Below are positions 9,878 through 25,309 of a stretch of DNA of 32,000 nucleotides, piece after piece. The translations under genes and the position numbers were made by a program. Source of the DNA: Panacagrimonas sp. (GTDB lineage Bacteria > Pseudomonadota > Gammaproteobacteria > Nevskiales > Nevskiaceae). Numbering within the stretch: the first letter of the stretch is position 1; each line of letters starts with the position of its first letter. The stretch lies in assembly GCA_052389915.1 (NCBI GenBank), contig JBQTHL010000056.1:15481-47480 (forward strand). The letters are read 5' to 3'. The notes beneath the pieces are model-generated. The model saw nothing but the letters and a program-made list of their open reading frames with translations. It was not told the origin of the DNA and searched no databases.

Positions 9878-9902
9878 TTCGGCATCCGCATTGCAGCGCG
9901 CG

Positions 9903-11060: not shown

Positions 11061-11062
11061 GC

Positions 11063-11887
11063 TCACATCGAGAAGCCGCCACCGCAGATCAGCACCTGTC
11101 CGCTGACGTAGTTGGATTCCGGGATGCAGAACAGATACACCGAGCCAGCCGCCTCGACCGGCGTTCCGGCGCGGCCCAGGGGCACGGTGGCTTCCATCGT
11201 CTTGAGCAGATCCGGGTTGACGCCGACCTTGATCTTGCGTCCTTCGACGTCGATGCTCGCGTCGGTACCCGCAGCCGCTTCCGTGAGGCGCGTCTTGATC
11301 AGGCCAAACGCCACGCAGTTGACGTTGACCTTGTAGCGGCCCCATTCCTTGGACATGGCCTTGGTCAGGCCGATGACCGCCGCCTTGCCCGCCGAGTAGT
11401 TGGCCTGGCCCGCATTGCCGCTGGTGCCGGCGATCGAAGAGATGTTCACGACCTTGCGGAACACCTCGCGGCCTTCCATCGCCTCCTTCTTGGTCTGCAC
11501 GCGCAGATATTCCGAGGCAGCTCGCAGGATCTGGAACGGTGCGGTGACATGCACGTCCATGATCGCGTGCCACTGCTCATCGCTCATCTTGTGAATGACG
11601 TTGTCCCAGGTGTAGCCGGCGTTGTTGACGATGATGTCGAGGCCACCGAGCTGTTCGATGGCGGTGTTGACGAAACGTTCGGCGAAACCCTTTTCCGTCA
11701 CGCTGCCGGGGCAGGCGATGGCCTTGCGGCCCAGGGCCTTGATGGCGGCGACGGTTTCTTCCGCGGGCGCCGCGTCGAGGTCGTTGACCACCACGTCCGC
11801 GCCTTCCGAGGCGAGCTTGAGTGCGATTTCACGGCCGATGCCGCGACCTGATCCGGTGACGAGTGCCACCTTGCCTGCGAGTTTCAT
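11063..11887 (-). CDS. SDR, MFE-2-type (D-specific) 3-hydroxyacyl-CoA dehydrogenase-like
   Basis: 274 aa. Contains ALVTGSGRGIGREIA, IVNNAGYTWDNVIHKMSDEQWHAIMDVHVTAPF and NISSIAGTSGNAGQANYSAGKAAVIGLTK. By eye this closely parallels the SDR domain of peroxisomal multifunctional enzyme 2. Confidence 0.88.
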   Translation of the reverse strand: MKLAGKVALVTGSGRGIGREIALKLASEGADVVVNDLDAAPAEETVAAIKALGRKAIACPGSVTEKGFAERFVNTAIEQLGGLDIIVNNAGYTWDNVIHKMSDEQWHAIMDVHVTAPFQILRAASEYLRVQTKKEAMEGREVFRKVVNISSIAGTSGNAGQANYSAGKAAVIGLTKAMSKEWGRYKVNVNCVAFGLIKTRLTEAAAGTDASIDVEGRKIKVGVNPDLLKTMEATVPLGRAGTPVEAAGSVYLFCIPESNYVSGQVLICGGGFSM

Positions 11888-11916
11888 GGAGTCTGATTCC
11901 TGAGGGTTGAATGTGA

Positions 11917-12336
11917 CTACTTCAGCGCGACCAGCGCGTCGCCCGAGAGCTTGACCTCGCCCTTGTCGTCGACGATGCCGATCTCCAGCTTGACCACCGT
12001 CTCGCCGTTGCGCTCGAGCTTTTCCACCACCTTGCCGCCGCAGGTCAGCTTGGCGCCGATGGGCGTGATGGCCGAGAAGCGCACGGCGTAGTGACGGAGC
12101 TGCGTCTGCGGTGCCCAGTTTGTGAGGAAGCGGCCGAGGTAGGCCATCGACAACATGCCGTGGGCAAATACGTCCGGCATGCCGGCGGCCTTGGCGAAGT
12201 CCAGATCGATGTGCACCGGGTTGTGATCGCCCGAGGCGCCGGCGAACAGGGCCAGCGTGGTGCGCGTGATGCGCGGCAGCTTCAGCGTCGGTAGTTCGTC
12301 GCCGACCTTCACTTCATGGAATGCAGGGGCGCTCAT
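11917..12336 (-). CDS. MaoC-domain (R)-specific enoyl-CoA hydratase, catalytic subunit
   Basis: 139 aa. The hydratase-2 motif is intact: FAGASGDHNPVHIDLDFAKAAG. Its start overlaps the upstream stop as ATGA (12333-12336). Confidence 0.88.
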   Translation of the reverse strand: MSAPAFHEVKVGDELPTLKLPRITRTTLALFAGASGDHNPVHIDLDFAKAAGMPDVFAHGMLSMAYLGRFLTNWAPQTQLRHYAVRFSAITPIGAKLTCGGKVVEKLERNGETVVKLEIGIVDDKGEVKLSGDALVALK

Positions 12337-12791
12337 GCCGATTTCTCCTTGGGGTTGCGGGCAACGATCACGCTGCGCGCTTCCATGACCTTGACGCCGT
12401 TCTGGTCGGTGATGACAGAGTCCTTGACGATGAATTCCAGCGCGCCGCCTTTCTTGGAATAGATGTCGGCGATGCGCGACTCCACTTTCAGCACGTCGCC
12501 GGCACAGACCTGCGCGTGATAGGTGAAGCTCTGCTCGCCGTGCAGGATGTTTCCGATGGGCACGCCCAGTTCCTCGAGCAGGGTGAACATGATTCCGGCA
12601 TCCAGGTCCGCGCCCATCAGGAAGGTCGGTGGTACCGGCAGGCTGCGGTAGCCCGCAGCCTGGGCCGCGGCCTCGTCGATGTACTCGGGCCGGGTTTCGC
12701 CGGTGGCCTTGGCGAAGAAGCGCAGGCGCCCCTTCTCCACTTCAAACAGCGTGCTCGGCAACTGCCGGCCGATGTGCTTGGTGTCGATCAT
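12333..12791 (-). CDS. MaoC-N-terminal-like hotdog protein, non-catalytic hydratase partner
   Basis: ORF 12333..13583 trimmed to ATG 12791 (MIDTKHIGRQLPSTLFEVEKGRLRFF...), because the upstream part overlaps the thiolase gene. The motif position reads FAKATGETRPEYID, lacking both Asp and His of the hydratase-2 motif. Confidence 0.8.
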   Translation of the reverse strand: MIDTKHIGRQLPSTLFEVEKGRLRFFAKATGETRPEYIDEAAAQAAGYRSLPVPPTFLMGADLDAGIMFTLLEELGVPIGNILHGEQSFTYHAQVCAGDVLKVESRIADIYSKKGGALEFIVKDSVITDQNGVKVMEARSVIVARNPKEKSA

Positions 12792-12805
12792 GGAAGTGCT
12801 CGCCC

Positions 12806-13984
12806 TCAGACCTGGTACATGGTCACGACGCAGGCGCCGCCGAGGCCCAGGTTGTGCTGCAGCGCCGTGCGCGCACCCTTGACCTGGCGCGCCTCGGCCG
12901 TGCCGCGCAACTGCTGGACCAGCTCGGTGCACTGCGCAAGGCCGGTCGCACCCAGCGGATGACCCTTGGACAGCAGGCCGCCGGAGGGATTGGTGACGAC
13001 CCGACCGCCGTAGGTGTTGTCGCCGTCGTTGACCATCTTCTCGCCGCCACCATCCGGCGCCAGGCGCAGCGCCTCGTAGGTCAGCAGTTCGTTGGTGGCG
13101 AAGCAGTCGTGCAGCTCGACCACGCTGACGTCCTTGGGATCGACGCCGGAGGCGGCGTAGACCTGATCGCCCGCGGCGCGCGCCATGTCGAAGCCGACGA
13201 GCTGCATCATGTTGCGCGCCTCGAAGGTCTCCGGTGTGTCCGTGGTCATGGCCTGCGCGATGATCTTCACCCGCGAATCCAGGCTGTGGGCCTTGGCGAA
13301 TTTCTCGGAGCAGACGATCGCCGCCGCCGCGCCACAGGTGGGCGGACAGGCCATCAGGCGCGTCATCGGTCCGATCAGCACCGGCGAGGCCATGACTTCT
13401 TCCACGGTCACTTCCTTGCGGAACAGCGCCACCGGATTGTTCATGGCATGACGGCTGGCCTTGGCGCGGATCTTCGCGAAGGTTTCGGCCTTGGTGCCGT
13501 ACTTCTCCATGTGCGCCATGCCGGCGCCGCCGAAGTAGCGGATCGCGAGCGGTACATCGGGCTGGCCGACGAGTTCGTCGCAAACGGTGTCGAAGGGCTG
13601 GAAAGGACTCGGCCGGTCATGGAAGTACGAACCCAGCGCGCCCGGTTTCATCTGCTCGAAGCCAAGCGCGATGACGCAATCCGCCGCGCCGCTCTGCACC
13701 GCCTGGCGCGCGAGAAACAGCGCGGTCGATCCCGTCGAACAGTTGTTGTTGACATTGATCACCGGAATGCCGGTCATGCCCACCGGGTACAGCGCGCGCT
13801 GGCCGCAGGTGGAATCGCCGTACACGTAGCCGACATAGGCCTGTTGCACGAGTTTGTAATCGACACCCGCATCGGCCAGCGCGCGCCGGGCCGCTTCGGC
13901 GCCCATGTCGTAATACGGTTCGGAAGTACCGGGCTTGGTGAAGGGCACCATGCCCACGCCGGCGACGACGACGGTCTGACTCAT
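12806..13984 (-). CDS. SCPx/SCP2-type thiolase (lipid-transfer-protein-like 3-ketoacyl-CoA thiolase)
   Basis: 392 aa. Has the nucleophile block VINVNNNCSTGSTALF, ELHDCFATNELLTYEAL and GHPLGATGLAQ, so all thiolase catalytic residues are present. GGAGAG lies 7 nt upstream of the ATG. Confidence 0.9.
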   Translation of the reverse strand: MSQTVVVAGVGMVPFTKPGTSEPYYDMGAEAARRALADAGVDYKLVQQAYVGYVYGDSTCGQRALYPVGMTGIPVINVNNNCSTGSTALFLARQAVQSGAADCVIALGFEQMKPGALGSYFHDRPSPFQPFDTVCDELVGQPDVPLAIRYFGGAGMAHMEKYGTKAETFAKIRAKASRHAMNNPVALFRKEVTVEEVMASPVLIGPMTRLMACPPTCGAAAAIVCSEKFAKAHSLDSRVKIIAQAMTTDTPETFEARNMMQLVGFDMARAAGDQVYAASGVDPKDVSVVELHDCFATNELLTYEALRLAPDGGGEKMVNDGDNTYGGRVVTNPSGGLLSKGHPLGATGLAQCTELVQQLRGTAEARQVKGARTALQHNLGLGGACVVTMYQV

Positions 13985-14090: not shown

Positions 14091-15548
14091 CTATGCGAAC
14101 CAGCGCAAGGTCATCGCGATGAGGCGCTTCACGCGTTCGGTGTAGGGTGGATAGAACATCCGAACCAGCCCGATGCGGGTATCGGCGACGGCGCGAGCGT
14201 GTGAGAACGTGCGGAAGCCGAACTCGCCATGCGTGCTGCCAAGGCCTGAATGGTTGACGCCACCGAACGGCAGCAGTGGGTGCAGGGCCTGCACGACGGT
14301 GTTGTTGACGCAGGCGCCACCCGAGGAGGTGCGGTCCAGCACGCGGCGGATGCGTGCACGGTCCTTGCCCCAGATGTACAGCGCGAGCGGCTTTTCGCCG
14401 CCGTTGATACTGTCGATGACCTCGTCGAGTTCGCCAAACCGGATCACCGGCAGCAGCGGCCCGAAGATCTCTTCCCGGAGGATGGCGGCGTCGTCCGGCA
14501 CTCGTTCCAGGATCGTTGGTGAGACGTAGCAGTGCTCTTCCCGCACGTCACCACCGACGGCGACGGTTGCGCCACGCTGACGCGCATCGTCCAGCAGTCG
14601 CCGCACGCGGGAGGTGTGGCGGGCGTTGACGATGCGCGCGAGATCGGGCGACAGGAAACGCGCCTCGTCATCCTTGCCGAAGACTTCCGCCAGCCGCTGG
14701 CGCAGCAGGTCCAGGAACTCGTCGGCGACCGAGGCGTGTACAAACAGGTGATCGGGCGCGATGCAGGTCTGCCCGTTGTTCATGAACTTGGACCAGCACA
14801 CGTTGTGCGCGGCCGCCTTGAGGTCGGCGCTGGCGTCGATGATGGTCGGGCTCTTGCCGCCCAACTCCAGGGTGACGCTGGTGAGATGGTGCGAAGCGGC
14901 AGCCATCACCACCTTGCCCAGAGCGGGTGCCCCGGTGAAAAAAATGTGGTCGAAGGGAAGGTCGAGCAGGGTCTTGGCGAGTTCTGCGTCGCCCTGGAAC
15001 AGCGCGACTTCTTCTGCAGGAAACGTCGCGTCGATGATTGTCTGCATCTGCGCCGACAGATGTGGCGTCATCTCTGAAGGTTTTACGATGGCGGTGTTGC
15101 CGGCGGCGAGCGCCAGCACCAGCGGGCAGAAGCTGAGATTCACCGGGTAATTCCACGGCGAAACGATCAGGCAGCGGCCGCGCGGCTGGTATTCGATGCG
15201 TCCCTGAGTGCCGGCCATCAGCGGCGAGAACCCGACGCGAGTCGGCTTCATCCAGCGCTTGAGTCTGCGCATGGCCATGTTCGCTTCGGATACGACGGTG
15301 AAGATTTCCGTCAGGTCCACTTCGACTTCCGGCTTGCGGAAGTCGGCCGCCGCCGCGGCGCGAATGGCGGGTGCTGCCGCCAGAACCGCGTCGCGCAGTC
15401 TGCGGATACGTTCGATCCGCTCCACGGCGGTGGATGTGCGCCAGCGCAGAGCGGTGGGCCGCTGCGCCTCGAAAGTGGCTAACACCCGTTCTGCCAGCGG
15501 GTCCTGGACCGGCGTGCTGGGCACCGGAATCTTCGAGGGAGCGTTCAC
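14091..15548 (-). CDS. NAD(P)-dependent aldehyde dehydrogenase, class-3/coniferyl-aldehyde-DH-like (fatty/aromatic aldehyde type)
   Basis: 485 aa. Contains SPWNYPVNLSF, IVKPSE, the catalytic Glu block LELGGKSP and the catalytic Cys block NNGQTCIAPDHLFVH. GTG start at 15548 has GGAG 8-11 nt upstream. It is divergent from the CuMMO operon. Confidence 0.93.
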   Translation of the reverse strand: MNAPSKIPVPSTPVQDPLAERVLATFEAQRPTALRWRTSTAVERIERIRRLRDAVLAAAPAIRAAAAADFRKPEVEVDLTEIFTVVSEANMAMRRLKRWMKPTRVGFSPLMAGTQGRIEYQPRGRCLIVSPWNYPVNLSFCPLVLALAAGNTAIVKPSEMTPHLSAQMQTIIDATFPAEEVALFQGDAELAKTLLDLPFDHIFFTGAPALGKVVMAAASHHLTSVTLELGGKSPTIIDASADLKAAAHNVCWSKFMNNGQTCIAPDHLFVHASVADEFLDLLRQRLAEVFGKDDEARFLSPDLARIVNARHTSRVRRLLDDARQRGATVAVGGDVREEHCYVSPTILERVPDDAAILREEIFGPLLPVIRFGELDEVIDSINGGEKPLALYIWGKDRARIRRVLDRTSSGGACVNNTVVQALHPLLPFGGVNHSGLGSTHGEFGFRTFSHARAVADTRIGLVRMFYPPYTERVKRLIAMTLRWFA

Positions 15549-15775
15549 GTACGAGTCTCCATGTGAGGAGGAAGCGATTGCGGACCACTAAGGTTCATAT
15601 AAGGCTCATAGGGTTCATTCGCCCACAATAAATCAGTCAAGCGTTTGTTAGATAGTGCGGTAACGACGTTCTGCACATCGGCGCGATCAGGACGACAAAT
15701 AATATAGTGAATGTACGTACTGCGCACTACTAAATAGGCGGGTCCGATCGAAATCCAGGACGATAGCAATGTGCG

Positions 15776-15793
15776 TAGCAGAGCTATCTGCTA
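15776..15793. promoter_or_regulatory. 7-4-7 inverted repeat TAGCAGA-GCTA-TCTGCTA abutting the putative -35 of the CuMMO operon
   Basis: Read directly, with perfect arms. It ends 1 nt before TTGACT (15794-15799). Its left arm overlaps by 2 nt the shared 12-mer GCAATGTGCGTA (15766-15777). Confidence 0.3.
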
Positions 15794-15823
15794 TTGACTT
15801 TTCCATGCAAGCTCAATTATGGT
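15794..15823 (+). promoter_or_regulatory. Putative sigma70-type promoter of xmoCAB (TTGACT - 18 nt - TATGGT)
   Basis: The -35 TTGACT (15794-15799) matches consensus at 5/6. TATGGT (15818-15823) matches at 4/6. The spacer is 18 nt. This would give a 5-prime UTR of about 65-70 nt before ATG 15897. By-eye prediction only. Confidence 0.35.
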
Positions 15824-15896: not shown

Positions 15897-16691
15897 ATGA
15901 GTTCCGTCAGCCAAAGCACGACATACCAGTCCCCCACGGCTCCCTGGGCCAAGCTTTTCCTGATTCTGGTCGGAGTTGGAATGCTTTACACCGGCTACCG
16001 GCTGTATCAAAACGCTACCGCCTTCACTGTTGGGCTCGACTACTTTTCGCCGGAATTCCAGAGCACTTGGATGATGCTGCTGTATATCCAGTTGCCGGTG
16101 CTGGTCGCGATGGGCACGGGAATCGTCGGATGGATCTGGCACACGCGTGATCGCCAGTTGGACAAGCTCGCGCCGGTCGAGGAGCTGCGACGCTACTTCG
16201 TGCTGCTCGGGTACATCATGATCTTCGCGATCGTGGCCTATCTGACGGCGTCGCCGTTCACCGAGGCGGATGCGGCCTGGCATCAGGTGACGGTGCGCGA
16301 TACCGATTTCACGCCCACCCACATCACGCTGTTCTACTTCGGCATTCCCATGTTCATCATGAGCGGTGTGGCGGCGTTCGCCTACGCCCGTACACGGCTG
16401 CCACAGTTCGCGAACAAGCTGTCCCTGCCGTTTGCGCTGGTGGTTGCAGGGCCGATCATGATCATGCCCAACCTGGGGCTGAACGAATGGGGTCACACGT
16501 TCTTCTACGCCGAGGAACTGTTCGCCGCGCCGATTCACTGGGGCTTCGTGCTGCTCGGCTGGGCCACGTTTGCGGCCGGCGGACTGGTGGTGCAGATCCT
16601 CACCCGGGTCGTCGAACTGACCAAGGTGATCGGTGAGCCCGCGCCGAGGGTGGAATCGGCGAAGGCGATGGCAGTCACAGCAGCAGCCTGA
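15897..16691 (+). CDS. xmoC: Copper membrane monooxygenase subunit C (PmoC/AmoC family)
   Basis: ORF 15849..16691 trimmed to ATG 15897 (MSSVSQ...), with AGGAGG at 15883-15888. Contains EADAAWHQVTVRDTDFTPTHITLFY (D-x3-H-x12-H) and PNLGLNEWGHTFFYAEELFAAPIHWGF (N-x3-H-x13-H). These have the same spacing as the PmoC CuC and CuD ligand sets of M. capsulatus. Confidence 0.93.
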   Translation: MSSVSQSTTYQSPTAPWAKLFLILVGVGMLYTGYRLYQNATAFTVGLDYFSPEFQSTWMMLLYIQLPVLVAMGTGIVGWIWHTRDRQLDKLAPVEELRRYFVLLGYIMIFAIVAYLTASPFTEADAAWHQVTVRDTDFTPTHITLFYFGIPMFIMSGVAAFAYARTRLPQFANKLSLPFALVVAGPIMIMPNLGLNEWGHTFFYAEELFAAPIHWGFVLLGWATFAAGGLVVQILTRVVELTKVIGEPAPRVESAKAMAVTAAA

Positions 16692-16714
16692 TAACGATCC
16701 TTGGTCTTGCGTCA

Positions 16715-16742
16715 GGCGAGGGCGCCCCTCGGCGCCCTCGCC
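16715..16742 (+). other. Perfect 12-bp GC hairpin 24 nt after the xmoC stop (mRNA stability/processing or attenuation element; no U-tract)
   Basis: GGCGAGGGCGCC-CCTC-GGCGCCCTCGCC read directly. It lies in the 192-nt xmoC-xmoA spacer. Confidence 0.5.
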
Positions 16743-16883
16743 GGAGAGCGACGAGACTAACGCGACGCTTTACGACTTGACCGCTCGCGGGCGGTCAGAA
16801 CATTGCGTGAATAATTAGAAACGCGGAAATCAGGCTGTCCCGCTCGCGGGCTTTCTGCTTGACGCTTTGAGGCGGAGGCCCCC

Positions 16884-17657
16884 ATGAAAGCCGTAGATGA
16901 TCTCGACAGTTCTGCCTCGGGTGCTTACGGGCTCAGCTCGTCAAAAGAGCAGCACAAGGCCTACGTCCAGGCGGACCTGCTGGTCATCCCCCTGATCGTG
17001 CTGCTGTTCATGGGCATCTTCAGTTTTCACTTCGCCCTGCTCGTCGGCGACTGGGATTACTGGGTGGACTGGCGCGACCGCCGCTGGTGGCCGCTGGTGA
17101 CGCCGCTGGCGCTCTCAGTACTGCCGGGAGTGTTCGGGTTTCTGCTGTGGGACAAGCTTCGTTTGCCGCTGGGCGGGACGCTCACGATCCTGTGCCTGAC
17201 CCTCGCGGCCTGGATCAGCCGCTATCTCAATTTTTATCTGTTCGCGGATTTCCCGATGAACTTCGTGTGGCCCTCGACCTACATCGGGCTGGGTCTGATT
17301 CTGGACTGCATGCTGCTGCTCACTCGCAGCTTCTTCTGGACCGGGCTGTTCGGCGGGTTTGCCTTCGGTCTGCTGATCTACCCGCTCAACTGGTCGATGC
17401 TGGCGCCGTTCCAGGTGCCGTTGGAACTCAACGGCACCATGCTTACTGTGGCCGATCTCATGGGCTACGAGTACATCCGCACGGCGATTCCCGAATACGT
17501 CCGCATCATCGAGGAGTCAACGCTCAGAACCTTCGGGTCAGCGGTGACGCCGCTGACGGCAGTGTTCGCCGGATTCCTGAACATCATGAACTACTGGTTC
17601 TGGCTGTGGATCGGCTACCTGGGTGCCAAGGCACTCTGGATCCGGAAGATCGTCTGA
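16884..17657 (+). CDS. xmoA: Copper membrane monooxygenase subunit A (PmoA/AmoA family)
   Basis: 257 aa. GDWDYWVDWRDRRWWPLVTP, NFVWPST and YEYIRTAIPEYVRIIEESTLRTFG align by eye with PmoA blocks ([40 protein letters not shown]). GGAGG lies at 16874-16878. Confidence 0.95.
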   Translation: MKAVDDLDSSASGAYGLSSSKEQHKAYVQADLLVIPLIVLLFMGIFSFHFALLVGDWDYWVDWRDRRWWPLVTPLALSVLPGVFGFLLWDKLRLPLGGTLTILCLTLAAWISRYLNFYLFADFPMNFVWPSTYIGLGLILDCMLLLTRSFFWTGLFGGFAFGLLIYPLNWSMLAPFQVPLELNGTMLTVADLMGYEYIRTAIPEYVRIIEESTLRTFGSAVTPLTAVFAGFLNIMNYWFWLWIGYLGAKALWIRKIV

Positions 17658-17667
17658 GGGCGCGACC

Positions 17668-18906
17668 ATGAAACTCCTACGTGCTTTTCTGCTTCCGCTG
17701 CTCGCACTGTGCGCGGGCTACACCCCGACGTTGCTGGCGCACGGCGAACGCGCGCAGATGCCGCAGTTGCGCATGCGCACGGTTCACTGGATCGACGTGC
17801 AGGCCTCCGCTTCCAAGCTGGCCATCAACGACATCGTCAAGATCAGCGGCAAGTTCATGCCGTCGAAGTACTGGCCGCACCATGTGAACTCGATCGAGGA
17901 AACGGCCTTCCTCAACATCGGCGTGCCCGGCCCTGCGTTTGTGCGTCTGGACTCGCGCGTCAACGGCGTGCCGATGATCCGCTCCACTTCGTTTCGCAAG
18001 GGCGAGACCTACGATTTCGAGATCACGCTCAAGGCGCGCAAGGTGGGTCGTTATCACGTCCACACCGTCATCAATGTCGAAGGCGCCGGCCCCATGATCG
18101 GCCCCGGCATGTGGGTCGAAGTGGCGGGCGACGAAGCGGCCTTCCAGAACACCGCCAAGACCCTGCTTGGCGAAACCATCGATCTGGAAACCTACGGCCT
18201 GGGCAACGTCATGTTCTGGTCCGCGCTGTGGTTTGCGGTGGGCCTGTCCTGGTTCATTTACTGGCTGACCAAGTGCCCCATCGTCGTGCCCCGCTTCAAG
18301 CGCACCGCAGAACTGGGCGTCGAGGCCGATCAGATGATCACCCCGATGGACCGGCGCATCGGCGGCATCTTCCTGGTGCTGACCCTGAGCCTGATCGTCG
18401 GCGGCTATGTCTACGCCCAGGAAAAATGGCCCATCACCACCCCTCTCCAGACCGGCAAGATCGACGTTCCCCCGCTCGATCAGCCGCCGACCCCGATCTC
18501 CATCAAGCTCATCGAAGCCCGGTACCGTATTCCCGGCCGCAGCTTCAGGATGGAATTCGACGTCATCAACAACAGTGATCGCCAGGTGACCATCGGCGAA
18601 TTCGCCGCCGGCAACCTGCGCTTCATCAACGCCAAGGTGCTCGACGTCAAACCCAAGGACGAGCACGACCTGGTGGCTTCCGATGCCCTGCGCGTGGAAG
18701 GTGGGCCGGTTGCTGCGGGAGCCACTCAGCGCGTCGTGATCTACGCCGACGACGCCATGTGGGAAACCGAGCGCATGACCACCATGATTTCCTCGCCCGA
18801 TGCGGTCGTGGCCGGCGTGCTGTTCTTCTTCGAGGAAGGCGGCAAGCGGCACTTGGTGGAATTTGGCGGCCCCATGATTCCCGACTTCGGTATGAGCAAG
18901 AGCTGA
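17668..18906 (+). CDS. xmoB: Copper membrane monooxygenase subunit B (PmoB/AmoB family), secreted precursor
   Basis: ORF 17623..18906 trimmed to ATG 17668. The signal peptide MKLLRAFLLPLLALCAGYTPTLLA is followed by HGERAQMPQLRMRTVHWID. YHVHTVINVEGAGPMIGPG aligns along its length by eye with M. capsulatus PmoB (HGEKSQAAFMRMRTIHWYD; WHVHTMMNVQGGGPIIGPG). It has two central TM helices and a C-terminal cupredoxin-like half. Confidence 0.95.
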   Translation: MKLLRAFLLPLLALCAGYTPTLLAHGERAQMPQLRMRTVHWIDVQASASKLAINDIVKISGKFMPSKYWPHHVNSIEETAFLNIGVPGPAFVRLDSRVNGVPMIRSTSFRKGETYDFEITLKARKVGRYHVHTVINVEGAGPMIGPGMWVEVAGDEAAFQNTAKTLLGETIDLETYGLGNVMFWSALWFAVGLSWFIYWLTKCPIVVPRFKRTAELGVEADQMITPMDRRIGGIFLVLTLSLIVGGYVYAQEKWPITTPLQTGKIDVPPLDQPPTPISIKLIEARYRIPGRSFRMEFDVINNSDRQVTIGEFAAGNLRFINAKVLDVKPKDEHDLVASDALRVEGGPVAAGATQRVVIYADDAMWETERMTTMISSPDAVVAGVLFFFEEGGKRHLVEFGGPMIPDFGMSKS

Positions 18907-19523
18907 TGATGCGTCGTCTCGCCCGCGTCCTGGTGTTCGGGTCCGCCGTGCTCGCAACCGCGCCTGCAGGCGCGCACGGCGGCGTGTCCATGGAAGACGA
19001 CAATTGCATCATGAAGATCGGTGCGATGACCGCGCATTTCACCGGCTACCAGCCGGAAAAGCGCGCGACGCAGGAGTTCTGCGAAGACATCCCGGAACTC
19101 GGGCGCGCCATCATTGTCATTGACTACGTCAGCGCCGCGCTGCGTCAGTATGAAGTCGAGTTCCGCGTGCTCAGAGATACTAAGGATCTAAAGTCGCGGG
19201 GACGCTACGAAGACCTCGGAACGCCGGCGGACATCGCAGCAGCCACCCTGATCCACGTGCCGCCGCAGGTGTATCCGCGAGGCACGCTGACCTTCGATCA
19301 GGGCTTCGATGCGCCGGGCTGGTACATCGGGATGATCACCGCCAAGGATCCAGCCACCGGCACGTTGTTGCACTCGGTGTTCCCGTTCAAGGTCGGCGTG
19401 CACAGCCTGTGGCGCTACGCCCCCGCCTTCATGATCGTTTTCGCGCTCGCAGGACTGGCTTATCGACTCACCGGTCGCAAGACAGCTACAGCTAAAGCTA
19501 AAGCTAAAGCAAAAGCAACATGA
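18906..19523 (+). CDS. PmoD/AmoD-like membrane-anchored periplasmic protein (putative copper protein; family assignment tentative)
   Basis: ORF 18759..19523 trimmed to ATG 18906, which overlaps the xmoB stop (TGATG). The signal peptide MMRRLARVLVFGSAVLATAPAGA is followed by HGGVSMEDDNCIMKIGAM. After that comes a soluble domain of about 150 aa, one C-terminal TM helix (YAPAFMIVFALAGLAYRL) and a basic tail. This architecture and its position directly after subunit B match PmoD. Confidence 0.65.
   Translation: MMRRLARVLVFGSAVLATAPAGAHGGVSMEDDNCIMKIGAMTAHFTGYQPEKRATQEFCEDIPELGRAIIVIDYVSAALRQYEVEFRVLRDTKDLKSRGRYEDLGTPADIAAATLIHVPPQVYPRGTLTFDQGFDAPGWYIGMITAKDPATGTLLHSVFPFKVGVHSLWRYAPAFMIVFALAGLAYRLTGRKTATAKAKAKAKAT
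19485..19520 (+). repeat. Hexanucleotide tandem repeat: GCTACA (GCTAAA)x3 GCAAAA GCAACA
   Basis: Read directly. It encodes the tail ATAKAKAKAKAT of the PmoD-like protein and runs into the copC ATG (19520). Its codon choice is AT-rich and atypical for this high-GC window. Confidence 0.85.
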
Positions 19524-19900
19524 GGACGCAGTCACCCCGCATGGCTTTTTGGCTACTCATCGCATGCTCGCTCGGCGCTTACGGATCTGCTGTGTTCGCG
19601 CATGCAGGGCTGGTCAGTTCGGAACCCGGCCGGCGTGCAGTGCTGGCCGCGGCTCCGAAAGAAATTAGATTGTGTTTCAACGAAAACGTCGAAGCGAAGT
19701 TTTCCAAGGTCAGCTTGTACAACGCCGATGGCACCGAGATTCCGCTCGGTGAGCTGAAGGCCGACCCGCAAAAGCCCGCCTGTCTGACTGCGTCGGTCGA
19801 TTCGCTGCCCGGCGGAAGCTACACGATCAAGTATCGTGTTCTGTCGGTCGATGGCCATGTCGTGGATTACGGCTACGGGTTCAAATTAAGCCTGCCCTGA
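19520..19900 (+). CDS. copC: CopC-domain periplasmic copper-binding protein
   Basis: 126 aa. The signal peptide ends ...SAVFA and is followed by HAGLVSSEPG (N-terminal His, as in the HxxLxxSxP CopC start). The C-terminal YRVLSVDGHVVDYGYGF carries the D/H ligand block. ATGA overlap with the upstream gene. Confidence 0.9.
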   Translation: MRTQSPRMAFWLLIACSLGAYGSAVFAHAGLVSSEPGRRAVLAAAPKEIRLCFNENVEAKFSKVSLYNADGTEIPLGELKADPQKPACLTASVDSLPGGSYTIKYRVLSVDGHVVDYGYGFKLSLP

Positions 19901-19907
19901 GGCCGGG

Positions 19908-21869
19908 GTGATCGAATTCCTGTCCGCGGCCTCTCGACTCATCGCGACGGCCGGCGCAGCGTGGATCATCGGTTCGACCTGCTTCAGCCTATGGTGCGCC
20001 CGGATGGATCCGCAGCGTGCAGCCCTGCGCGCGGCGCTGCCCCTGCTGATCGCCGTCGGTCTGGTGGTTCTGGGCCATGCCGGCCTGATGTGGACCCAGG
20101 CGCTCTCGCTCGCCCCCCTCGGCTCCGGTTCGACCGATTGGGAAAGCCTGATCAACGGCACCCATGTCGGGCGAGTGTGGCGGATACGCGCCAGCGTCGC
20201 CGTCCTGCTGCTGTTGTCGGCGCTCGTGGCGACGACATGGGGGCGGGCGCGATGGGCTTGCGCCTCGATGGCGGCGACGTATCTCGCGCTCGGACCCTGG
20301 GGTGGACACGCAGCCGGCGCGGAATCGGCTTGGCAGGTGATGCTGCCCAATGTCATCCATGTTCTCGCCATCTCGGTCTGGGTCGGCGCCCTGCCGTCCT
20401 GGTTCGTGGCGGTGCGACGTTTTGCTCGCGCCGATCCGTCCGCGCTGCCCACGCCGGTTCTTGCGGCCGCCCTGGAGCGATTCTCTCGGTTGGCGATGGT
20501 GTTGATGATCGTCATCGTCGTCACGGGCGTCTGGCTGGCGGATCTCTACATCGACACGCAGGGGGACCTGCTGGGGACGCGCTACGGCGCGCTGATTCTC
20601 GGAAAGCTCGGCTTGCTGGCACTTGCGCTGCTGTTCGCCAACCGGTTGCGAACACGGTTTCTTCCCATGCTGAGATCGGCCGGCGAGGCGACTGGTCAGC
20701 GTCGCCTTGCCGCCTCGGCCTTGCGTCATTTCTGCCCTGAACTGGCCGCGGCTTCCGGCGTCCTGATCTGTGCAGCCTGGCTGGCGCAGACCACCCCAGC
20801 ACTGCACGAGCCCGCGCCGAAGTGGTGGCTGCCGTTCCGCTGGTCATTAGACGCAACCTGGCCGGATTCGTCGCTGCGGGTGTGGTTTCTGGCAGCCTTC
20901 GCAGCCTTGATCCTCGCGGGAGCCGCGGCAACCGGCTCGCGACGTAAAACGCTGCGCATTCCCTCAATGCTGTTGGCGGTAGCCGCGACCAGCGTGTTGG
21001 CCTGGGCGTTCGCCGTCCCGGCTTATCCGAATACCTATCGGCGCTCCCAGGTGCCGTATCTGACGCTGTCCGTGGCCGGCGGGCGCGCGCTGTTCGCCGA
21101 GCACTGCACGGCCTGCCACGGCGCGGGAGGACTCGGAGACGGACCGTTGGCAGCGAAGCTGCCGAAGCCGCCGGCAAATCTGAGCGAGCCGCACACGGCG
21201 CTGCATACGGCTGGCGACATGCACTGGTGGCTCACACACGGTATTCCCGAAAGCGGAATGCCCGCCCTGGGTGCTGTGCTCTCCGAGGACGACCGCTGGG
21301 ACCTGATCAACTTCATGCGCGCCTTCTCGCAAGGTTTCGAAAGCCGGGTGCTGCGCGCCCGCGTGGTTCCCGGCCTGGCCTGGCTTGGGGCGATCAATTT
21401 CTACATCGAGGGCGTGCCGGGACCGGGGGAACTCAAGGGCTATCGCGATACACACAATGTCTTGCTGACCTTTCTCGGCGGACCACATGCCGAAGCTCGC
21501 GCGCGAACGCTCGCCGCTGCGATGCCTGAGTTCCAGTCGCGCCGCACGCAGATTCTCGCGGTGCCGTTGGGCGATGTTCGCCTGCCTGCCGACTTGCCTT
21601 ATCCCGTGCTGAGCACCGCCGCTGCCGAGCTCTGGTCCGCCTACGAGTTGCTCGCGCGCACGGTCGGCGACCGCGGCCTGCCGGACCGGCTGGGCATGGA
21701 TTGGACGGATGCGGAATTCCTCATCGATCGTTTCGGCTACGTGCGTGCGCGCTGGATTGCGCAGGACGACCCGGAGGGGTGGACCGACCCCGTCAGGCTG
21801 TACCCGGAACTGGATCGGCTCAATGCCGAACCGCGCTTGCGTCCGCCCCCGGACGATCACATTCACTGA
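19908..21869 (+). CDS. copD: CopD-family membrane protein fused to a c-type cytochrome domain and a C-terminal thioredoxin-fold-like domain lacking CxxC
   Basis: 653 aa with a GTG start 7 nt after the copC stop. The N-terminal ~300 aa are polytopic (CopD-like), followed by two more TM helices. The haem motif is FAEHCTACHGAGGLGDGP (Cys400/Cys403/His404, nt 21105-21119), with GIPESGMPA as the likely axial Met. The C-terminal ~170 aa contains NVLLTFLGG...ILAVPLG...AEFLIDRFGYVRARWI, which resembles the peroxiredoxin/TlpA fold but has no Cys pair. Confidence 0.85.
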   Translation: MIEFLSAASRLIATAGAAWIIGSTCFSLWCARMDPQRAALRAALPLLIAVGLVVLGHAGLMWTQALSLAPLGSGSTDWESLINGTHVGRVWRIRASVAVLLLLSALVATTWGRARWACASMAATYLALGPWGGHAAGAESAWQVMLPNVIHVLAISVWVGALPSWFVAVRRFARADPSALPTPVLAAALERFSRLAMVLMIVIVVTGVWLADLYIDTQGDLLGTRYGALILGKLGLLALALLFANRLRTRFLPMLRSAGEATGQRRLAASALRHFCPELAAASGVLICAAWLAQTTPALHEPAPKWWLPFRWSLDATWPDSSLRVWFLAAFAALILAGAAATGSRRKTLRIPSMLLAVAATSVLAWAFAVPAYPNTYRRSQVPYLTLSVAGGRALFAEHCTACHGAGGLGDGPLAAKLPKPPANLSEPHTALHTAGDMHWWLTHGIPESGMPALGAVLSEDDRWDLINFMRAFSQGFESRVLRARVVPGLAWLGAINFYIEGVPGPGELKGYRDTHNVLLTFLGGPHAEARARTLAAAMPEFQSRRTQILAVPLGDVRLPADLPYPVLSTAAAELWSAYELLARTVGDRGLPDRLGMDWTDAEFLIDRFGYVRARWIAQDDPEGWTDPVRLYPELDRLNAEPRLRPPPDDHIH

Positions 21870-21887: not shown

Positions 21888-22388
21888 ATGCAACGATCCC
21901 CCGCTCTTTTTATTCTCGCGCTGCTCGCCAGCAGCGTATCGCTTGGCGCGCGGGCAGGCGGCGACGCGGCGCACGATCACCATCAGCATCACCAAGGGCA
22001 CGGACAACACCCGGCCGATGGCGCGGCGGGCAAGGGTGCCACCGAGGTTCCACCGCTGCGCATCCTGTTTCCCGAGTCCGGCGCCAAGGTCGGGACGCAG
22101 CTTGCCGTGGTGTTCGAAACGCCCGGCGAAATGGCACGGCTGACCATGAGCGCGCCGGTGGTGGGTACTCATCTGCATATCGAAACCGACGGTATTTCCC
22201 TGATGCCGAGTGAGAACCAGCTCATCCGGCTCGGTGGAAACCGTTACGTGTTCGTGTTCGACCTGCCGGTCAGCGCGGGCGAGCGCAGCCTGCGGGTGTA
22301 TTGGTCGGATGGCATGCACCGGACCATCGATTCGAGCATGCAGACGGTCAAGGTGATCGTCGAGGGCGCGATCAGTCCTGGAAAGTGA
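21888..22388 (+). CDS. Secreted His-rich protein, DUF4399-like (putative periplasmic metal binding)
   Basis: 166 aa with AGGAG RBS. The signal peptide MQRSPALFILALLASSVSLGARA is followed by the His cluster HDHHQHHQGHGQH (nt 21972-22010). The blocks VGTHLHIETDG and GERSLRVYWSDGMH resemble the DUF4399 GHHHL..D / GEH.L.L...D..H pattern as I remember it. Confidence 0.6.
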   Translation: MQRSPALFILALLASSVSLGARAGGDAAHDHHQHHQGHGQHPADGAAGKGATEVPPLRILFPESGAKVGTQLAVVFETPGEMARLTMSAPVVGTHLHIETDGISLMPSENQLIRLGGNRYVFVFDLPVSAGERSLRVYWSDGMHRTIDSSMQTVKVIVEGAISPGK

Positions 22389-22611
22389 AGTAGGAAGGGA
22401 ACGGCGGCAGGAGAATCCTGTCGCGCGCCTGCGCGTCCGACGCTTCGCAGGTCGACGCTGATCGCTTGCGCACGGCGTCCACCGCCCGAGCGCGTCCACG
22501 AGGCAGGCACCCGCTGGTCGGGGCGCTTCGCCCGCCGGTCCGAACTGGCATCAATCCAATCTATTCCCGGTATGATGTTGTTCTAACAAACATTTGGTAT
22601 GGAGAGTAAGG

Positions 22612-25110
22612 ATGTTTTGGAGTAGGTCTGCATGTCGCTGGTCAATCATTCCTGCGTTGCTGCTCGCAGGGCCGGCCGCGAACGCCGTCGAGTACGACTT
22701 CTCGGCAGGAGGCTTTGATTTTTCGTCAGTGTTGAACAATACCCTCACGCTTGGCGCTGCGTGGAGAATCGAGGGTCGATCAAATGATCTGGTCGGCAAG
22801 TCCAACCTCGATCCCGGGGTTTGTTCCGGTCCCTACCAGTCCTGCCAGGGCCTGCACCGCCTGCAGAACTTTCCCGCCCAACGGCTGGCGTCTGCGCCGG
22901 GTATGGCCTCCATCAACTTCGACGACGGCAATCTCAACTACAACAAGGGCGACATCATCCAGGCGCCGCTCAAGCTCTCGCAAGACCTTACCGTCAGCTT
23001 CGGAGACTACGGCATCTTTGTTCGAGGACTTGGCATTTTCGACCAGGCGAACTACTTCGACTTCCGCAATTTCTACCCCAACCAGATCACCGCCGAGAAC
23101 GTTGGCAGCGTGGGTATTGTCGGCAGCCCGACGTCCAACCGGTACCTGCCGCGGGTGTACGGTCCTGGGGCTCCGGTTCGCAGTGACCGGGCGGAAGACG
23201 AGGCGCAAGAAATCGGGCTCAGATACGACCTGCTCGATGCCAATTTCTACGGGAGTCTGCCTTTTGTCGGCGAACGCGAACTGACCTTTCGGCTCGGCCG
23301 GCAGACAGTGAATTGGGGCCAGAGCACGGTCGCGGTCGTCAACAGCGTCAACCAGGCGCAGCCGGTGAACGCGAACAGCCTTTACCGGCTCGGTTTCGGT
23401 CTGCTGGAGGAGCTCTTCGTCCCGGTGGGCATGGCGCGCTTCAGCACAGAACTGGTGAACGACGTCGGCGTCGAGATCTACTACCAGTACGAATGGGACC
23501 CGGTCGAGATTCCGACGCCTGGCAGCTACATGTCCTTCGTCGACATCGGTACCGACAATCTGCGCGGTACGGTCAACGCGGCGTTCGGTGGCGCGGCGGA
23601 CGACCCCGATCACGTCGGTGCGCCGCTGGACAACCCGCTCACCCTGATCACGCCAACCACCTTGACCCTGGATCGGCGCGGCGACAACGAGGCCCGCGAC
23701 CAGGGCCAGTACGGCATCGGCCTGAAGTATTACGCCGAGGAACTCAATAACGGCACCGAGTTCGCGGCTTACTTCATGAACTACCATTCGAAGCTGCCGT
23801 ACGTGAGTTTCTATTCCACCGATCCCAGTTGCGCCCGTCGCGAGGGCAGTTCCCGGGGCATCGACGCCACGAACACTCTCGAATTCCTGGCCGGGTGTCC
23901 AAACCTACCGGTCACCGCGCCGTCGGCGTCATCGCAACTGGCTCTCGATCTGGTCACTCTGGCGGCACAGAGGCCGGGCGCGCTCGCTGATCTGGGCGCC
24001 GGGACATTGGACCTGGGAGCCATTCTGGGCGGCGTGGGCGGACTATTGCTGCCGCAGCCTGGTCAGCAAATCAGTGACGCCGTGCCGCTGGACACGGCCC
24101 AGATCCAGCTCGAATACCCCGAAGACCTGAAGATGTTCGGGTTCAGCTTCACCACCACCGCTGGCGAGCTGTCCCTGCAGGGCGAGCTGTCCTACCGACC
24201 GAAACTTCCGCTGCAGGTTGCCCTGATCGATCTGGCCTTTGCCTCCTTCGGTCCCACTCTGACCCGCTGCCACGACCGGAACCTGGGTTGCCTGGGCGCC
24301 TCTGCGGGACTCGGGTTCAACGAGGCGGGGAGCTACGTGGTCTACGACGGCAACAACTTCACCGACGCCAGCGGCAACAACCCCTACCCTGATGCAATCA
24401 ATCTGGTCGTGGGCGCGGCGCCGGGTTCGGCGCGTTCCTTTCCCAACTTCATCGTGCCCTACCGCGGCGGTGTGGTAGGCGAGAATCCGCCGAACAGCTA
24501 CATCCGCGGCTGGATTCCTGGAAAGGTGGCGCAGTACAACTTCGGAGCGACGCAGGTGCTCGGCCCGAACGAGAACTGGATTGCTGCGGACCAGGTGATC
24601 CTGCTCTACGAACTGGCGGCAACCCATGTGCTCAACATGCCGGATTTCGACAAGCTGCAGATCGAAGGCCCGCTGACGGCGACCACGCACGCCAGCGCCG
24701 GCGCCGATGGCAGTGGTGCGGATGGATCGCGCCTAGCCTGTTCGACCAATCCCTCGTGCTCGGTGGGTCCGGACGGACTGCGCTTCAACCCTTACCAGGC
24801 ACCGCGTAGTGCATTCGCCGATGCATTTTCCTGGGGCTATCGCATCGTTGGGCGCATCGCCTACGAGTCGGTGTTCCCTTCGATCAGCATCCAGCCGTTG
24901 TTCATCTGGTCACAGGACATCGGTGGCAACTCGCCGGGACCGGCCGGCAATTTCGTGGAAGGCCGCAAGACCCTGAACTTCCTGCTGGAAACGCGCTACG
25001 GGAAGTCCTACTCGTTCACTATCGCCTACAACAGTTTCTTCGGCGGCGGTAAGGACAACCTTTACGAGGATCGCGACAACCTCGGCTTTTATGTCAAGTA
25101 CCAGTTCTGA
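22612..25110 (+). CDS. DUF1302-family outer-membrane beta-barrel protein
   Basis: ORF 22594..25110 trimmed to ATG 22612, with GGAGAG at 22601-22606. The signal peptide ends ...LLLAGPAANA. LTLGAAWRIEGRSNDLVG and INFDDGNLNYNKGDIIQAPLKLSQDL are typical DUF1302 N-terminal blocks. The C-terminus ...LGFYVKYQF ends in an aromatic residue, as OMP signatures do. Confidence 0.8.
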   Translation: MFWSRSACRWSIIPALLLAGPAANAVEYDFSAGGFDFSSVLNNTLTLGAAWRIEGRSNDLVGKSNLDPGVCSGPYQSCQGLHRLQNFPAQRLASAPGMASINFDDGNLNYNKGDIIQAPLKLSQDLTVSFGDYGIFVRGLGIFDQANYFDFRNFYPNQITAENVGSVGIVGSPTSNRYLPRVYGPGAPVRSDRAEDEAQEIGLRYDLLDANFYGSLPFVGERELTFRLGRQTVNWGQSTVAVVNSVNQAQPVNANSLYRLGFGLLEELFVPVGMARFSTELVNDVGVEIYYQYEWDPVEIPTPGSYMSFVDIGTDNLRGTVNAAFGGAADDPDHVGAPLDNPLTLITPTTLTLDRRGDNEARDQGQYGIGLKYYAEELNNGTEFAAYFMNYHSKLPYVSFYSTDPSCARREGSSRGIDATNTLEFLAGCPNLPVTAPSASSQLALDLVTLAAQRPGALADLGAGTLDLGAILGGVGGLLLPQPGQQISDAVPLDTAQIQLEYPEDLKMFGFSFTTTAGELSLQGELSYRPKLPLQVALIDLAFASFGPTLTRCHDRNLGCLGASAGLGFNEAGSYVVYDGNNFTDASGNNPYPDAINLVVGAAPGSARSFPNFIVPYRGGVVGENPPNSYIRGWIPGKVAQYNFGATQVLGPNENWIAADQVILLYELAATHVLNMPDFDKLQIEGPLTATTHASAGADGSGADGSRLACSTNPSCSVGPDGLRFNPYQAPRSAFADAFSWGYRIVGRIAYESVFPSISIQPLFIWSQDIGGNSPGPAGNFVEGRKTLNFLLETRYGKSYSFTIAYNSFFGGGKDNLYEDRDNLGFYVKYQF

Positions 25111-25123
25111 GGTGCGGACGCGG

Positions 25124-25144
25124 GCAGTGGTCAGTTTCCACTGC
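25124..25144 (+). terminator. Weak hairpin after the DUF1302 gene (GCAGTGG-TCAGTTT-CCACTGC)
   Basis: A 7-bp stem 14 nt after the stop. There is no U-tract, so terminator function is uncertain. Confidence 0.25.
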
Positions 25145-25160
25145 GCGGAAGCGCGAGCGA

Positions 25161-25190
25161 TGGAAAGGCAAATCGCAATGTGCGTATACT
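25161..25190 (+). promoter_or_regulatory. Putative promoter of the TonB2-type operon (TGGAAA - 18 nt - TATACT), overlapped by the shared 12-mer and an inverted repeat
   Basis: The hexamers were read by eye (4/6 and 5/6 to consensus). GCAATGTGCGTA (25175-25186) overlaps the spacer and the -10. AATGTGC (25177-25183) and GCACATT (25197-25203) form a 7-bp inverted repeat with a 13-nt spacer. Confidence 0.3.
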
Positions 25191-25309
25191 CACTCTGCAC
25201 ATTTAAAAGAGACTTCGAGCCGGCCTGAGAGGGATCCGTGCATTGAAGTTTCGATCAGTGCGGTGGCTTGCCACCGCGCGTTTGTCGGCGGGGAGGAGTC
25301 CCCTGGAAC

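Follow-up and report, generated by a model that had tools for sequence, protein, structure and literature searches.

A seven-gene copper monooxygenase operon

We analysed a 32,000-nt stretch of contig JBQTHL010000056.1 (Panacagrimonas sp., assembly GCA_052389915.1, positions 15,481 to 47,480), referred to below as the window, in which three consecutive plus-strand genes encode subunits C, A and B of a copper membrane monooxygenase (CuMMO). CuMMOs drive methane and ammonia oxidation, and their substrate range beyond these two guilds is poorly mapped. The genes, here called xmoC, xmoA and xmoB, are the first three of a seven-gene unit, xmoC-xmoA-xmoB-pmoD-copC-copD::cytc-orf166, in which four genes follow xmoB and the end lies at position 22388:

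15897-16691, plus strand: xmoC, CuMMO subunit C, 264 aa (Pfam AmoC, E 4.1e-83)
16884-17657, plus strand: xmoA, CuMMO subunit A, 257 aa (Pfam AMO, E 4.4e-79)
17668-18906, plus strand: xmoB, CuMMO subunit B, 412 aa (Pfam Monooxygenase_B, E 1.8e-121)
18906-19523, plus strand: pmoD-like gene, 205 aa (match to PDB 6CPD; start overlaps the xmoB stop, TGATG)
19520-19900, plus strand: copC, periplasmic copper-binding protein, 126 aa (Pfam CopC, E 3.5e-21)
19908-21869, plus strand: copD::cytc fusion, 653 aa (Pfam CopD, E 6.8e-17; Cytochrom_C, E 1.3e-12)
21888-22388, plus strand: orf166, with signal peptide, His-rich linker (HDHHQHHQGHGQH) and beta-sandwich domain

From xmoA to orf166 the genes are tightly coupled, with gaps of at most 18 nt or stop/start overlaps; copC overlaps pmoD by 4 nt. 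All seven open reading frames (ORFs) are intact and each has a ribosome-binding site, such as AGGAGG 5' of xmoC and GAGGG 5' of the xmoB start (ATG at 17668). About 17 loci, as well as independent metagenome contigs, show this seven-gene order, which persists across 45-99% identity. An earlier reading of this DNA, the original prediction, had described a complete xmoCAB operon in C-A-B order. The gene order is borne out by the ORF listing and the Pfam matches and the three subunits are complete, but the operon does not end at 18906, since it continues through the four genes to 22388.

Subunits and copper ligands

XmoC, XmoA and XmoB covered the profiles PF04896, PF02461 and PF04744 almost completely, with scores far above chance, and matched chains of particulate methane monooxygenase (pMMO) and ammonia monooxygenase (AMO) in the PDB with E values from 1e-52 to 1e-108. 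XmoC matched PmoC chains at 5e-71 with the ligand motifs aligned, XmoA matched both PmoA and AmoA chains at 1e-52 to 1e-63, and XmoB matched PmoB at 6.5e-108 with HGE, MRTxHW and HVHT aligned. The best PDB matches of XmoCAB were pMMO subunits.

The metal ligands were located by script. XmoC residues 123-142 read EADAAWHQVTVRDTDFTPTH, with D125, H129 and H142 encoded at nt 16269, 16281 and 16320, and residues 196-214 read NEWGHTFFYAEELFAAPIH, with N196, H200 and H214. The two triads, spaced D-x3-H-x12-H (CuC) and N-x3-H-x13-H (CuD), align to those of PmoC. In XmoB, a signal peptide is followed by HGE, whose histidine is the N-terminal H25 (codon 17740), and the two histidines of YHVHT (H130 and H132, codons 18055 and 18061) complete the CuB ligand set; these residues align to His33, His137 and His139 of Methylococcus capsulatus PmoB. 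The XmoB motif MRTVHW aligns with MRTIHW of the same PmoB, which contains His48, and the position of its His72 (GKFHVF) is occupied by Met in XmoB (GKFMPS). Hence, the ligand motifs and codon positions originally given for XmoC and XmoB were all reproduced, both quoted XmoA strings are present, the alignment to solved chains agrees with the proposed equivalence to the M. capsulatus PmoC and PmoB sites, and the reading of His48 as present and of His72 as Met held.

Among relatives spanning 50-99% identity, the CuC and CuD ligands of XmoC were invariant in 44 of 44 sequences, and H25, H130 and H132 of XmoB in 39 of 39. This invariance indicates purifying selection on a working enzyme. As judged from its sequence, XmoCAB belongs to the pMMO/AMO superfamily and is a full-length CuMMO in which no CuB, CuC or CuD ligand is missing.

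Accessory genes downstream of xmoB

All four genes that follow xmoB code for proteins of the periplasm or membrane from copper-handling families: PmoD, CopC, CopD joined to a c-type cytochrome, and a His/Met-rich protein that is new. The ORF at 18906-19523 had no match to any Pfam (E up to 5) or NCBIfam model. Residues 33-162 of its product aligned at E 4.6e-14 with 6CPD, the solved PmoD from Methylocystis sp. Rockwell, and the two invariant cysteines were in register. A signal peptide precedes a periplasmic cupredoxin-like domain, which contains two cysteines, and a membrane helix lies at the C-terminus; the hydrophobic C-terminal stretch (APAFMIVFALAGLAY) and the N-terminal signal sequence are both visible in the translation. 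A homolog lies directly after xmoB in 36 of the 44 loci, and the homologs share the conserved mature N-terminus HGGVS..DD.C....AHFTGY..EFCEDIP. The CuA-forming subclass of PmoD is defined by the motif Cx7MxH(n)C (Fisher et al. 2018, PMC6189053). The window protein has C-x6-M-x2-H, and most relatives have L or Y in place of this Met but keep the Cys, the His and the second Cys. We therefore rejected the published CuA site for this protein, as its Met ligand position is not conserved, and we assign the ORF to the PmoD family, in a subclass different from the CuA-forming one.

CopC scored under the cut-off of NCBIfam copper_CopC. The C-terminal ~180 aa of the CopD-cytochrome c fusion gave a weak AhpC-TSA (thioredoxin-fold) hint at E 0.045. 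The fusion is kept in operons of the Nevskiales type, and the Porticoccaceae-type loci examined had a multicopper oxidase and no match to the fusion.

The last gene, orf166, matched nothing in Pfam even at E 5, and among 5.8 billion proteins it had only 67 homologs, none of which is named or carries a Pfam domain. At L048, L050, L052 and L053, where the full context was inspected, it occupied the seventh position of this operon. Invariant residues include H95 and H97 (an HxH pair), M106, D125, W139, D141 and H144. The core of the AF2 model had a pLDDT >90, and Foldseek returned only generic Ig/FnIII sandwiches, so that the fold assigns no function. We regard orf166 as a candidate copper-handling accessory protein of an undescribed family. 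In the literature found, four features appear to be undescribed: the arrangement of seven genes, a PmoD subclass that lacks the CuA Met, the joining of CopD to cytochrome c, and the orphan family of orf166, which appears confined to this type of operon.

Host and distribution

A scan with one genome per species gave a 100% match to contig CBDDRR010000275.1 of the uncultured bacterium isolate s12_90 (L011). The XmoA sequences closest to that of the window, at 91-94% identity, came from metagenome-assembled genomes (MAGs) of Nevskia, Panacagrimonas and Polycyclovorans, followed by Solimonas sp. SE-A11 (91%), Panacagrimonas perspica DSM 26377 (83%) and the betaproteobacterium Aquabacterium sp. 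CECT 9606 (81%); a protein search added Sinimarinibacterium sp. CAU 1509 (79%) and Solimonas aquatica (72%). The flanking housekeeping-type genes were 83-98% identical to MAGs of Nevskia, Panacagrimonas and Polycyclovorans. Given the closeness of both the flanking genes and XmoA to Nevskiales, the host is a gammaproteobacterium of the Nevskiaceae (Nevskiales) with ~64% GC, which specifies the high-GC proteobacterium originally proposed.

The clade was recovered from groundwater, sand filters, soil and marine samples and is widespread in gamma- and betaproteobacteria. The same seven-gene operon is present in the cultured P. perspica DSM 26377, Solimonas aquatica DSM 25927 and Solimonas sp. SE-A11, and also in the cultured Sinimarinibacterium sp. 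CAU 1509 and Aquabacterium sp. CECT 9606. Because these heterotrophs are in culture and easily grown, the substrate, the copper dependence and the roles of the accessory genes are open to genetics. Genetics is hard in obligate methanotrophs and nitrifiers; the carriers here are independent of the enzyme for growth on ordinary media.

Two operons 81-89% identical to the Nevskiales type were found outside that order, one in Aquabacterium sp. CECT 9606 (L042) and one on a 2.2-kb contig of a 'Sphingobium' MAG (L040), a short contig binned as an alphaproteobacterium. They suggest recent horizontal transfer or, for L040, mis-binning.

MAG s12_90 contained a second xmoC-xmoA pair (contig CBDDRR010000373.1, 2134-4524; L044), truncated by the contig end, with XmoA 79% and XmoC 75% identical to those of the window; upstream of it lies an AraC-family regulator in divergent orientation. 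Either the organism has two paralogous operons, or the pair entered the MAG through faulty binning.

Promoter and intergenic elements

A consensus scan found a promoter-like site upstream of xmoC, to which promoter function is putatively assigned:

15794-15823, plus strand: TTGACT-N18-TATGGT

Of 11 aligned relatives, 10 conserve the block GCTATTGAC(T/A) together with a TA-rich -10-like hexamer at equal spacing. An imperfect inverted repeat, TAGCAGAGCTATCTGCTA, at 15775-15794 abuts the -35 hexamer of this site. Relatives show a related pattern, G.AG....CTA....CTATTGAC, and in several of them a MerR-family regulator gene stands beside xmoC; the repeat is a candidate operator. The same intergenic region contains the 21-nt sequence ATCAGTCAAGCGTTTGTTAGA at 15634-15654, between xmoC and the divergent aldehyde dehydrogenase (ALDH) gene described below. 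The stretch is identical in five relatives within otherwise diverged surroundings, with the block present in L001, L002, L005 and L021, and its reverse complement includes TTGACT; it is possibly a promoter or operator of the ALDH gene. A terminator scan of the window gave four sites, which were not above shuffled controls and none of which lay between orf166 (ending at 22388) and the next gene, DUF1302 (starting at 22594). Neither the Rfam nor the tRNA scan gave a hit in the window.

These features bear on whether the operon has a current role at all. The GC content of the operon region (0.59-0.63) is under that of its flanks (0.64-0.70), no regulator adjoins the operon, and the closely similar operon in Aquabacterium indicates that transfer does happen, all of which would fit a horizontally acquired operon that is cryptic or decaying. 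Seven intact ORFs with ribosome-binding sites, invariant metal ligands, a promoter block conserved in 10/11 relatives and a gene order kept over 45-99% identity make such an operon without present role scarcely credible.

Phylogenetic placement and family cut-offs

Over 215 aligned core columns, XmoA was 42% identical to M. capsulatus PmoA, 44% to the solved AmoA (9pxf), 45% to Methylomagnum PxmA, 42% to Mycolicibacterium NBB4 HmoA, 43% to the Rhodococcus ZPP sequence and 38% to Methylacidiphilum PmoA. Identities were higher to Porticoccaceae sequences (53-56%) and to Polaromonas/Hydrogenophaga P0033 (69% over these columns, 65-69% overall). An exhaustive HMMER scan of 1.84 billion 50%-identity cluster representatives yielded, among near-full-length matches, a single representative with >43% full-length identity, the Porticoccaceae-like P0087 (56%). 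Two distant representatives, P0126 (985 aa) and P0128 (514 aa), carry the A-subunit domain within longer proteins, at residues 685-894 and 277-493, respectively; they are possible subunit fusions or gene-calling artefacts.

A phylogeny had been proposed as a check on the original prediction, and the XmoA tree (neighbour-joining, Kimura distances, 215 columns, 200 bootstraps) agreed with it in placing XmoA outside the PmoA and AmoA groups. PmoA, AmoA, PxmA, HmoA and 15 other family representatives formed one clade with a bootstrap of 98. The window XmoA fell outside this clade, in an assemblage of Nevskiales, Burkholderiales, Pseudomonadales and Porticoccaceae sequences to which Polaromonas/Hydrogenophaga P0033 also belongs. 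The tree shows non-membership in PmoA and AmoA rather than fine placement. The assemblage of the window enzyme is distinct, at the level of sequence, from the methane-, ammonia- and actinobacterial alkane-oxidising CuMMOs.

Family cut-offs gave a mixed result. XmoA did not reach the cut-offs of TIGR03080 (250.3, cut-off 318) or NCBIfam AmoA_BACT (270.8, cut-off 290), XmoC missed that of AmoC_BACT (305.3, cut-off 319), and none of the joint TIGR pMMO/AMO equivalog cut-offs for A, B and C was reached. The sole pass was XmoB, which exceeded the NCBIfam AmoB_BACT equivalog cut-off (512.7 vs 336), so that automatic annotation will label it an ammonia monooxygenase subunit. This AmoB pass and the 'methane/ammonia monooxygenase' labels that such genes now bear can inflate the counts of methanotrophs and nitrifiers in metagenome surveys.

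An ammonia monooxygenase, or ammonia co-oxidation, in a heterotroph would agree with the AmoB_BACT score of XmoB and the near misses of XmoA and XmoC, with the origin of many relatives in sand-filter and groundwater MAGs, and with the pmoD-copC-copD tail, which mirrors the amoCAB(ED)-copCD arrangement of ammonia oxidisers (PMC6189053). We nevertheless consider it improbable: XmoA is only 44% identical to the solved AmoA and lies outside the AmoA-containing clade, no hydroxylamine-oxidation genes were seen in the window or in the annotated parts of related loci, the neighbours of the operon are carbon-catabolic, and descriptions of the cultured carriers present them as ordinary heterotrophs.

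A methane monooxygenase of an unrecognised methanotroph lineage is a very improbable reading, even though all pMMO metal ligands are present, PmoD is encoded and the best PDB matches are pMMO subunits. At 42% identity to PmoA, XmoA stands outside the PmoA groups, no methanol or formaldehyde gene was found in the 32 kb, and related betaproteobacterial carriers of xmoCABD reportedly did not assimilate methane. The original prediction had likewise noted the lack of C1 and hydroxylamine genes; among the annotated ORFs of the window no methanol, formaldehyde or hydroxylamine gene was recognised, and a pyrroloquinoline quinone (PQQ) dehydrogenase was not found either.

Genomic neighbourhood in the window and in relatives

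On the other side of the promoter region lie a divergent ALDH gene and a block of beta-oxidation genes, including several acyl-CoA dehydrogenases (ACADs), and beyond these a TetR regulator and genes for electron transfer flavoprotein (ETF):

14091-15548, minus strand: aldehyde dehydrogenase, divergent from xmoC (Pfam Aldedh, E 1.5e-93)
4370-13984, minus strand: beta-oxidation block (Pfam and NCBIfam annotation), with the following genes
12806-13984, minus strand: SCPx-type 'lipid-transfer' thiolase
12333-12800 and 11917-12336, minus strand: two MaoC/hotdog hydratase subunits
11063-11887, minus strand: short-chain dehydrogenase/reductase (SDR)
9903-11051, minus strand: ACAD
9266-9877, minus strand: methyltransferase
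8356-9255, minus strand: alpha/beta-hydrolase
6698-7852 and 5537-6679, minus strand: PimC/PimD-like ACAD pair
4370-5521, minus strand: further ACAD
2579-3325 and 3371-4309, plus strand: ETF beta and alpha subunits (NCBIfam ETF models, all under cut-offs)
1792-2490, plus strand: TetR regulator (Pfam TetR_N, TetR_C_24)

The best NCBIfam match of the ALDH was benzaldehyde dehydrogenase MdlD, under its cut-off, and an ALDH occupies the same position at L002, L005, L006 and L021. The combination of a heteromeric ACAD, a heteromeric hydratase and an SCPx thiolase is typical for the breakdown of acyl-CoAs that are bulky or branched. Embedded in the block, with no clear role there, are a methyltransferase and an alpha/beta-hydrolase. 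Pfam and NCBIfam thus confirm the aldehyde dehydrogenase, ETF alpha and beta, four ACADs and thiolase that had been listed for the window, and the beta-oxidation setting is real. The argument drawn from it is weaker for the clade as a whole, since the ALDH and beta-oxidation block are syntenic with xmoCAB only in the nearest relatives (L001, L002, L005, L006 and L021). For the same reason the linkage of the block to the monooxygenase is one that we infer, and we rejected the block as part of the conserved context of the operon.

Downstream of orf166 the window contains an outer-membrane and TonB-type uptake block (Pfam annotation), which may be linked to the substrate of the operon or to copper:

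22594-31788, plus strand: outer-membrane and TonB-type uptake block, with the following genes
22594-25110, plus strand: DUF1302
25268-26092, plus strand: DUF3450
26089-27477 and 27470-28009, plus strand: two ExbB/MotA genes
28425-29153, plus strand: TonB
29125-31788, plus strand: TPR-DUF1329

A counterpart of this block lies behind the operon at L052 and L053. At both loci it extends over DUF3450, two ExbB genes and ExbD, and L052, with TonB and TPR-DUF1329 as well, has the full block; at L006 DUF1302 and the two ExbB genes alone were matched.

Recurrence of neighbours was assessed by clustering all ORFs from 44 loci. SDRs lay near the operon in 18 loci, an AMP-binding acyl-CoA synthetase beside it in 15, and an AraC regulator divergent from xmoC likewise in 15. 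A multicopper oxidase was nearby in eight loci, an ALDH in seven and a MerR regulator also in seven, and a PQQ-cytochrome c alcohol dehydrogenase adjoined the operon in seven Nevskiales loci. MMPL and BNR genes also recur near the relatives' operons, and further contigs contributed a GMC oxidoreductase, an SDR together with an enoyl-CoA hydratase, and a faint match to FadL/Toluene_X. These recurrent neighbours, including the DUF1302, DUF1329 and MMPL uptake genes, fit a metabolism that leads from hydrocarbons to fatty acids. A homolog search of the window for the acyl-CoA synthetase, AraC, MerR, multicopper oxidase, PQQ-alcohol dehydrogenase, MMPL and BNR found none.

Proposed function

We consider it likely that XmoCAB oxidises hydrocarbons other than methane, and not ammonia, with a short- to medium-chain or a branched or cyclic alkane as the most likely substrate. 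Support comes from the recurrent catabolic neighbours, from the parallel with the AMP-binding gene of actinobacterial clusters, from the methylcycloalkane enrichment of Porticoccaceae carriers and from the ethane and propane use reported for Polaromonas and Rhodoferax carriers of xmoCABD, the last three treated below. The hydrocarbon monooxygenase of unknown substrate range suggested by the original prediction is therefore backed by recurrent neighbours that point the same way, with its function still deduced from context.

According to this proposal, XmoCAB would reside in the inner membrane, as CuMMOs generally do, and would use O2 and two electrons to hydroxylate a non-methane hydrocarbon to an alcohol. 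Copper would be acquired, reduced and delivered to or inserted into XmoCAB by PmoD, CopC, CopD-cytochrome c and orf166. The alcohol would be oxidised to the aldehyde by a dehydrogenase encoded elsewhere in the same genome; in relatives, a PQQ-cytochrome c alcohol dehydrogenase, a GMC oxidoreductase or SDRs adjoin the operon. The divergently transcribed ALDH of the window would convert the aldehyde to the acid, and after its activation to a CoA ester the acid would be broken down by the neighbouring beta-oxidation genes.

Several points weigh against this assignment. The window has no recognisable alkanol-type alcohol dehydrogenase, no acyl-CoA synthetase and no regulator adjacent to the operon, and the synteny with beta-oxidation genes could be simple inheritance of a neighbourhood among close relatives. 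The inventory of C1- and N-oxidation genes is confined to the 32-kb window of the genome, and the XmoA tree is distance-based and was built without Haliea EmoA, Nocardioides BmoA or the sequences of Rochman et al. To these are added the AmoB_BACT pass of XmoB, the literature found, which holds no member of the assemblage with a biochemically demonstrated substrate, and the pmoD-copCD arrangement, which resembles that of ammonia oxidisers and alpha-methanotrophs (PMC6189053).

A small oxygenate, such as acetone or another ketone, or an alkene, such as ethylene, might take the place of an alkane as substrate. CuMMOs are promiscuous: acetone is oxidised by PMO3, a pMMO homolog of verrucomicrobial methanotrophs (PMC8630023), and CuMMOs are present in ethylene-assimilating Haliea (cited in PMC6215863); that no alkanol dehydrogenase was found beside the window operon would be in keeping with such a substrate. 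We judge this unlikely, as the relatives' PQQ-cytochrome c alcohol dehydrogenase, GMC oxidoreductase, ALDH and acyl-CoA synthetase fit a terminal route from alcohol through aldehyde to acid, and epoxide or coenzyme M pathway genes were not seen in the loci examined.

Within the hydrocarbon reading, bulky (branched or cyclic) hydrocarbons may be the substrates that feed the adjacent block of SCPx-thiolase, MaoC pair and PimCD-like ACADs. A more far-reaching and rather doubtful idea combines such bulky substrates for XmoCAB with a dedicated copper-supply, and possibly electron-supply, module made up of the four downstream genes. Its members would be the PmoD variant (with N-terminal His and without the CuA Met), CopC, the CopD-cytochrome c-thioredoxin-like fusion and orf166. 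Direct transfer of electrons or Cu(I) from the fused cytochrome c or from orf166 to XmoCAB, if it takes place, would be relevant to the question of how CuMMOs receive their metal and their reductant in vivo.

Comparison with known systems

The enzyme would not surprise a specialist, as it is of a known, uncharacterised kind. The CuMMOs of S. aquatica, Polaromonas and Rhodoferax have been given as of unknown function (Khadka et al. 2018, PMC6215863; Awala et al. 2021, PMC8630023), a 2026 groundwater MAG survey recorded pMMO/AMO-type operons in Nevskiales (PMC13603553), and 'unknown' particulate hydrocarbon monooxygenase clades appear in published trees (PMC12510462). Homologs in Panacagrimonas, Solimonas, Nevskia and Sinimarinibacterium genomes are already annotated by NCBI. 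With the clade present in both the literature and NCBI annotations, the novelty of the window enzyme is lower than the original prediction had supposed. A gas-seep stable-isotope probing study and a sand-filter preprint made no mention of this clade.

With M. capsulatus Bath pMMO and the AMO of ammonia-oxidising bacteria (AOB), the window enzyme shares a build from three subunits and every ligand position of CuB, CuC and CuD, and PmoD and CopCD accessory genes also occur in alpha-methanotroph and AOB operons (PMC6189053). It differs from them in its A subunit, which is 42-44% identical and belongs to a separate clade, in the Met at the His72 position of the M. capsulatus bis-His site, in a PmoD without the Cx7MxH CuA motif and in the absence of C1 or nitrogen genes nearby.

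The actinobacterial hydrocarbon and butane monooxygenases (Mycolicibacterium chubuense NBB4 hmoCAB and Rhodococcus sp. ZPP) have the same C-A-B order, and their hmoCAB clusters carry a downstream AMP-binding gene, as do many relatives of the window operon. Their role is the oxidation of hydrocarbons rather than of methane or ammonia. The window XmoA is, however, 42-43% identical to theirs and in a different clade, and the actinobacterial clusters have no PmoD (PMC6189053) and no copCD tail, unlike the window operon.

Closer to the window are the Porticoccaceae, whose carriers bloom on methylcycloalkanes according to enrichment metagenomics and whose monooxygenase clade is apart from all proteobacterial pmoA and amoA (bioRxiv 10.1101/2022.11.07.515388). 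The likeness consists of 53-56% XmoA identity and a pmoD-like gene after xmoB; in place of copC-copD::cytc-orf166 the Porticoccaceae loci have an AraC regulator, a multicopper oxidase and MMPL/BNR genes.

The betaproteobacterial xmoCABD operons of Polaromonas and Rhodoferax belong to a host class different from that of the window. Rochman et al. reportedly tied them in 2020 to ethane and propane, and not to methane, through stable-isotope probing and transcription; the carriers are said to be heterotrophs, not methanotrophs or nitrifiers, with the D gene placed after B, and this evidence reportedly concerns those betaproteobacteria, not the Nevskiales branch.

The greatest likeness is to the Nevskiales CuMMOs of S. 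aquatica, P. perspica and SE-A11, which have the same subunits, the same seven-gene order and 72-94% XmoA identity. The window operon differs from these in adjoining the ALDH/beta-oxidation block, which is common to the nearest MAGs only, and in being without the MerR regulator and the PQQ-alcohol dehydrogenase found beside several relatives. The window operon is a well-preserved further example of a widespread gamma- and betaproteobacterial CuMMO clade.

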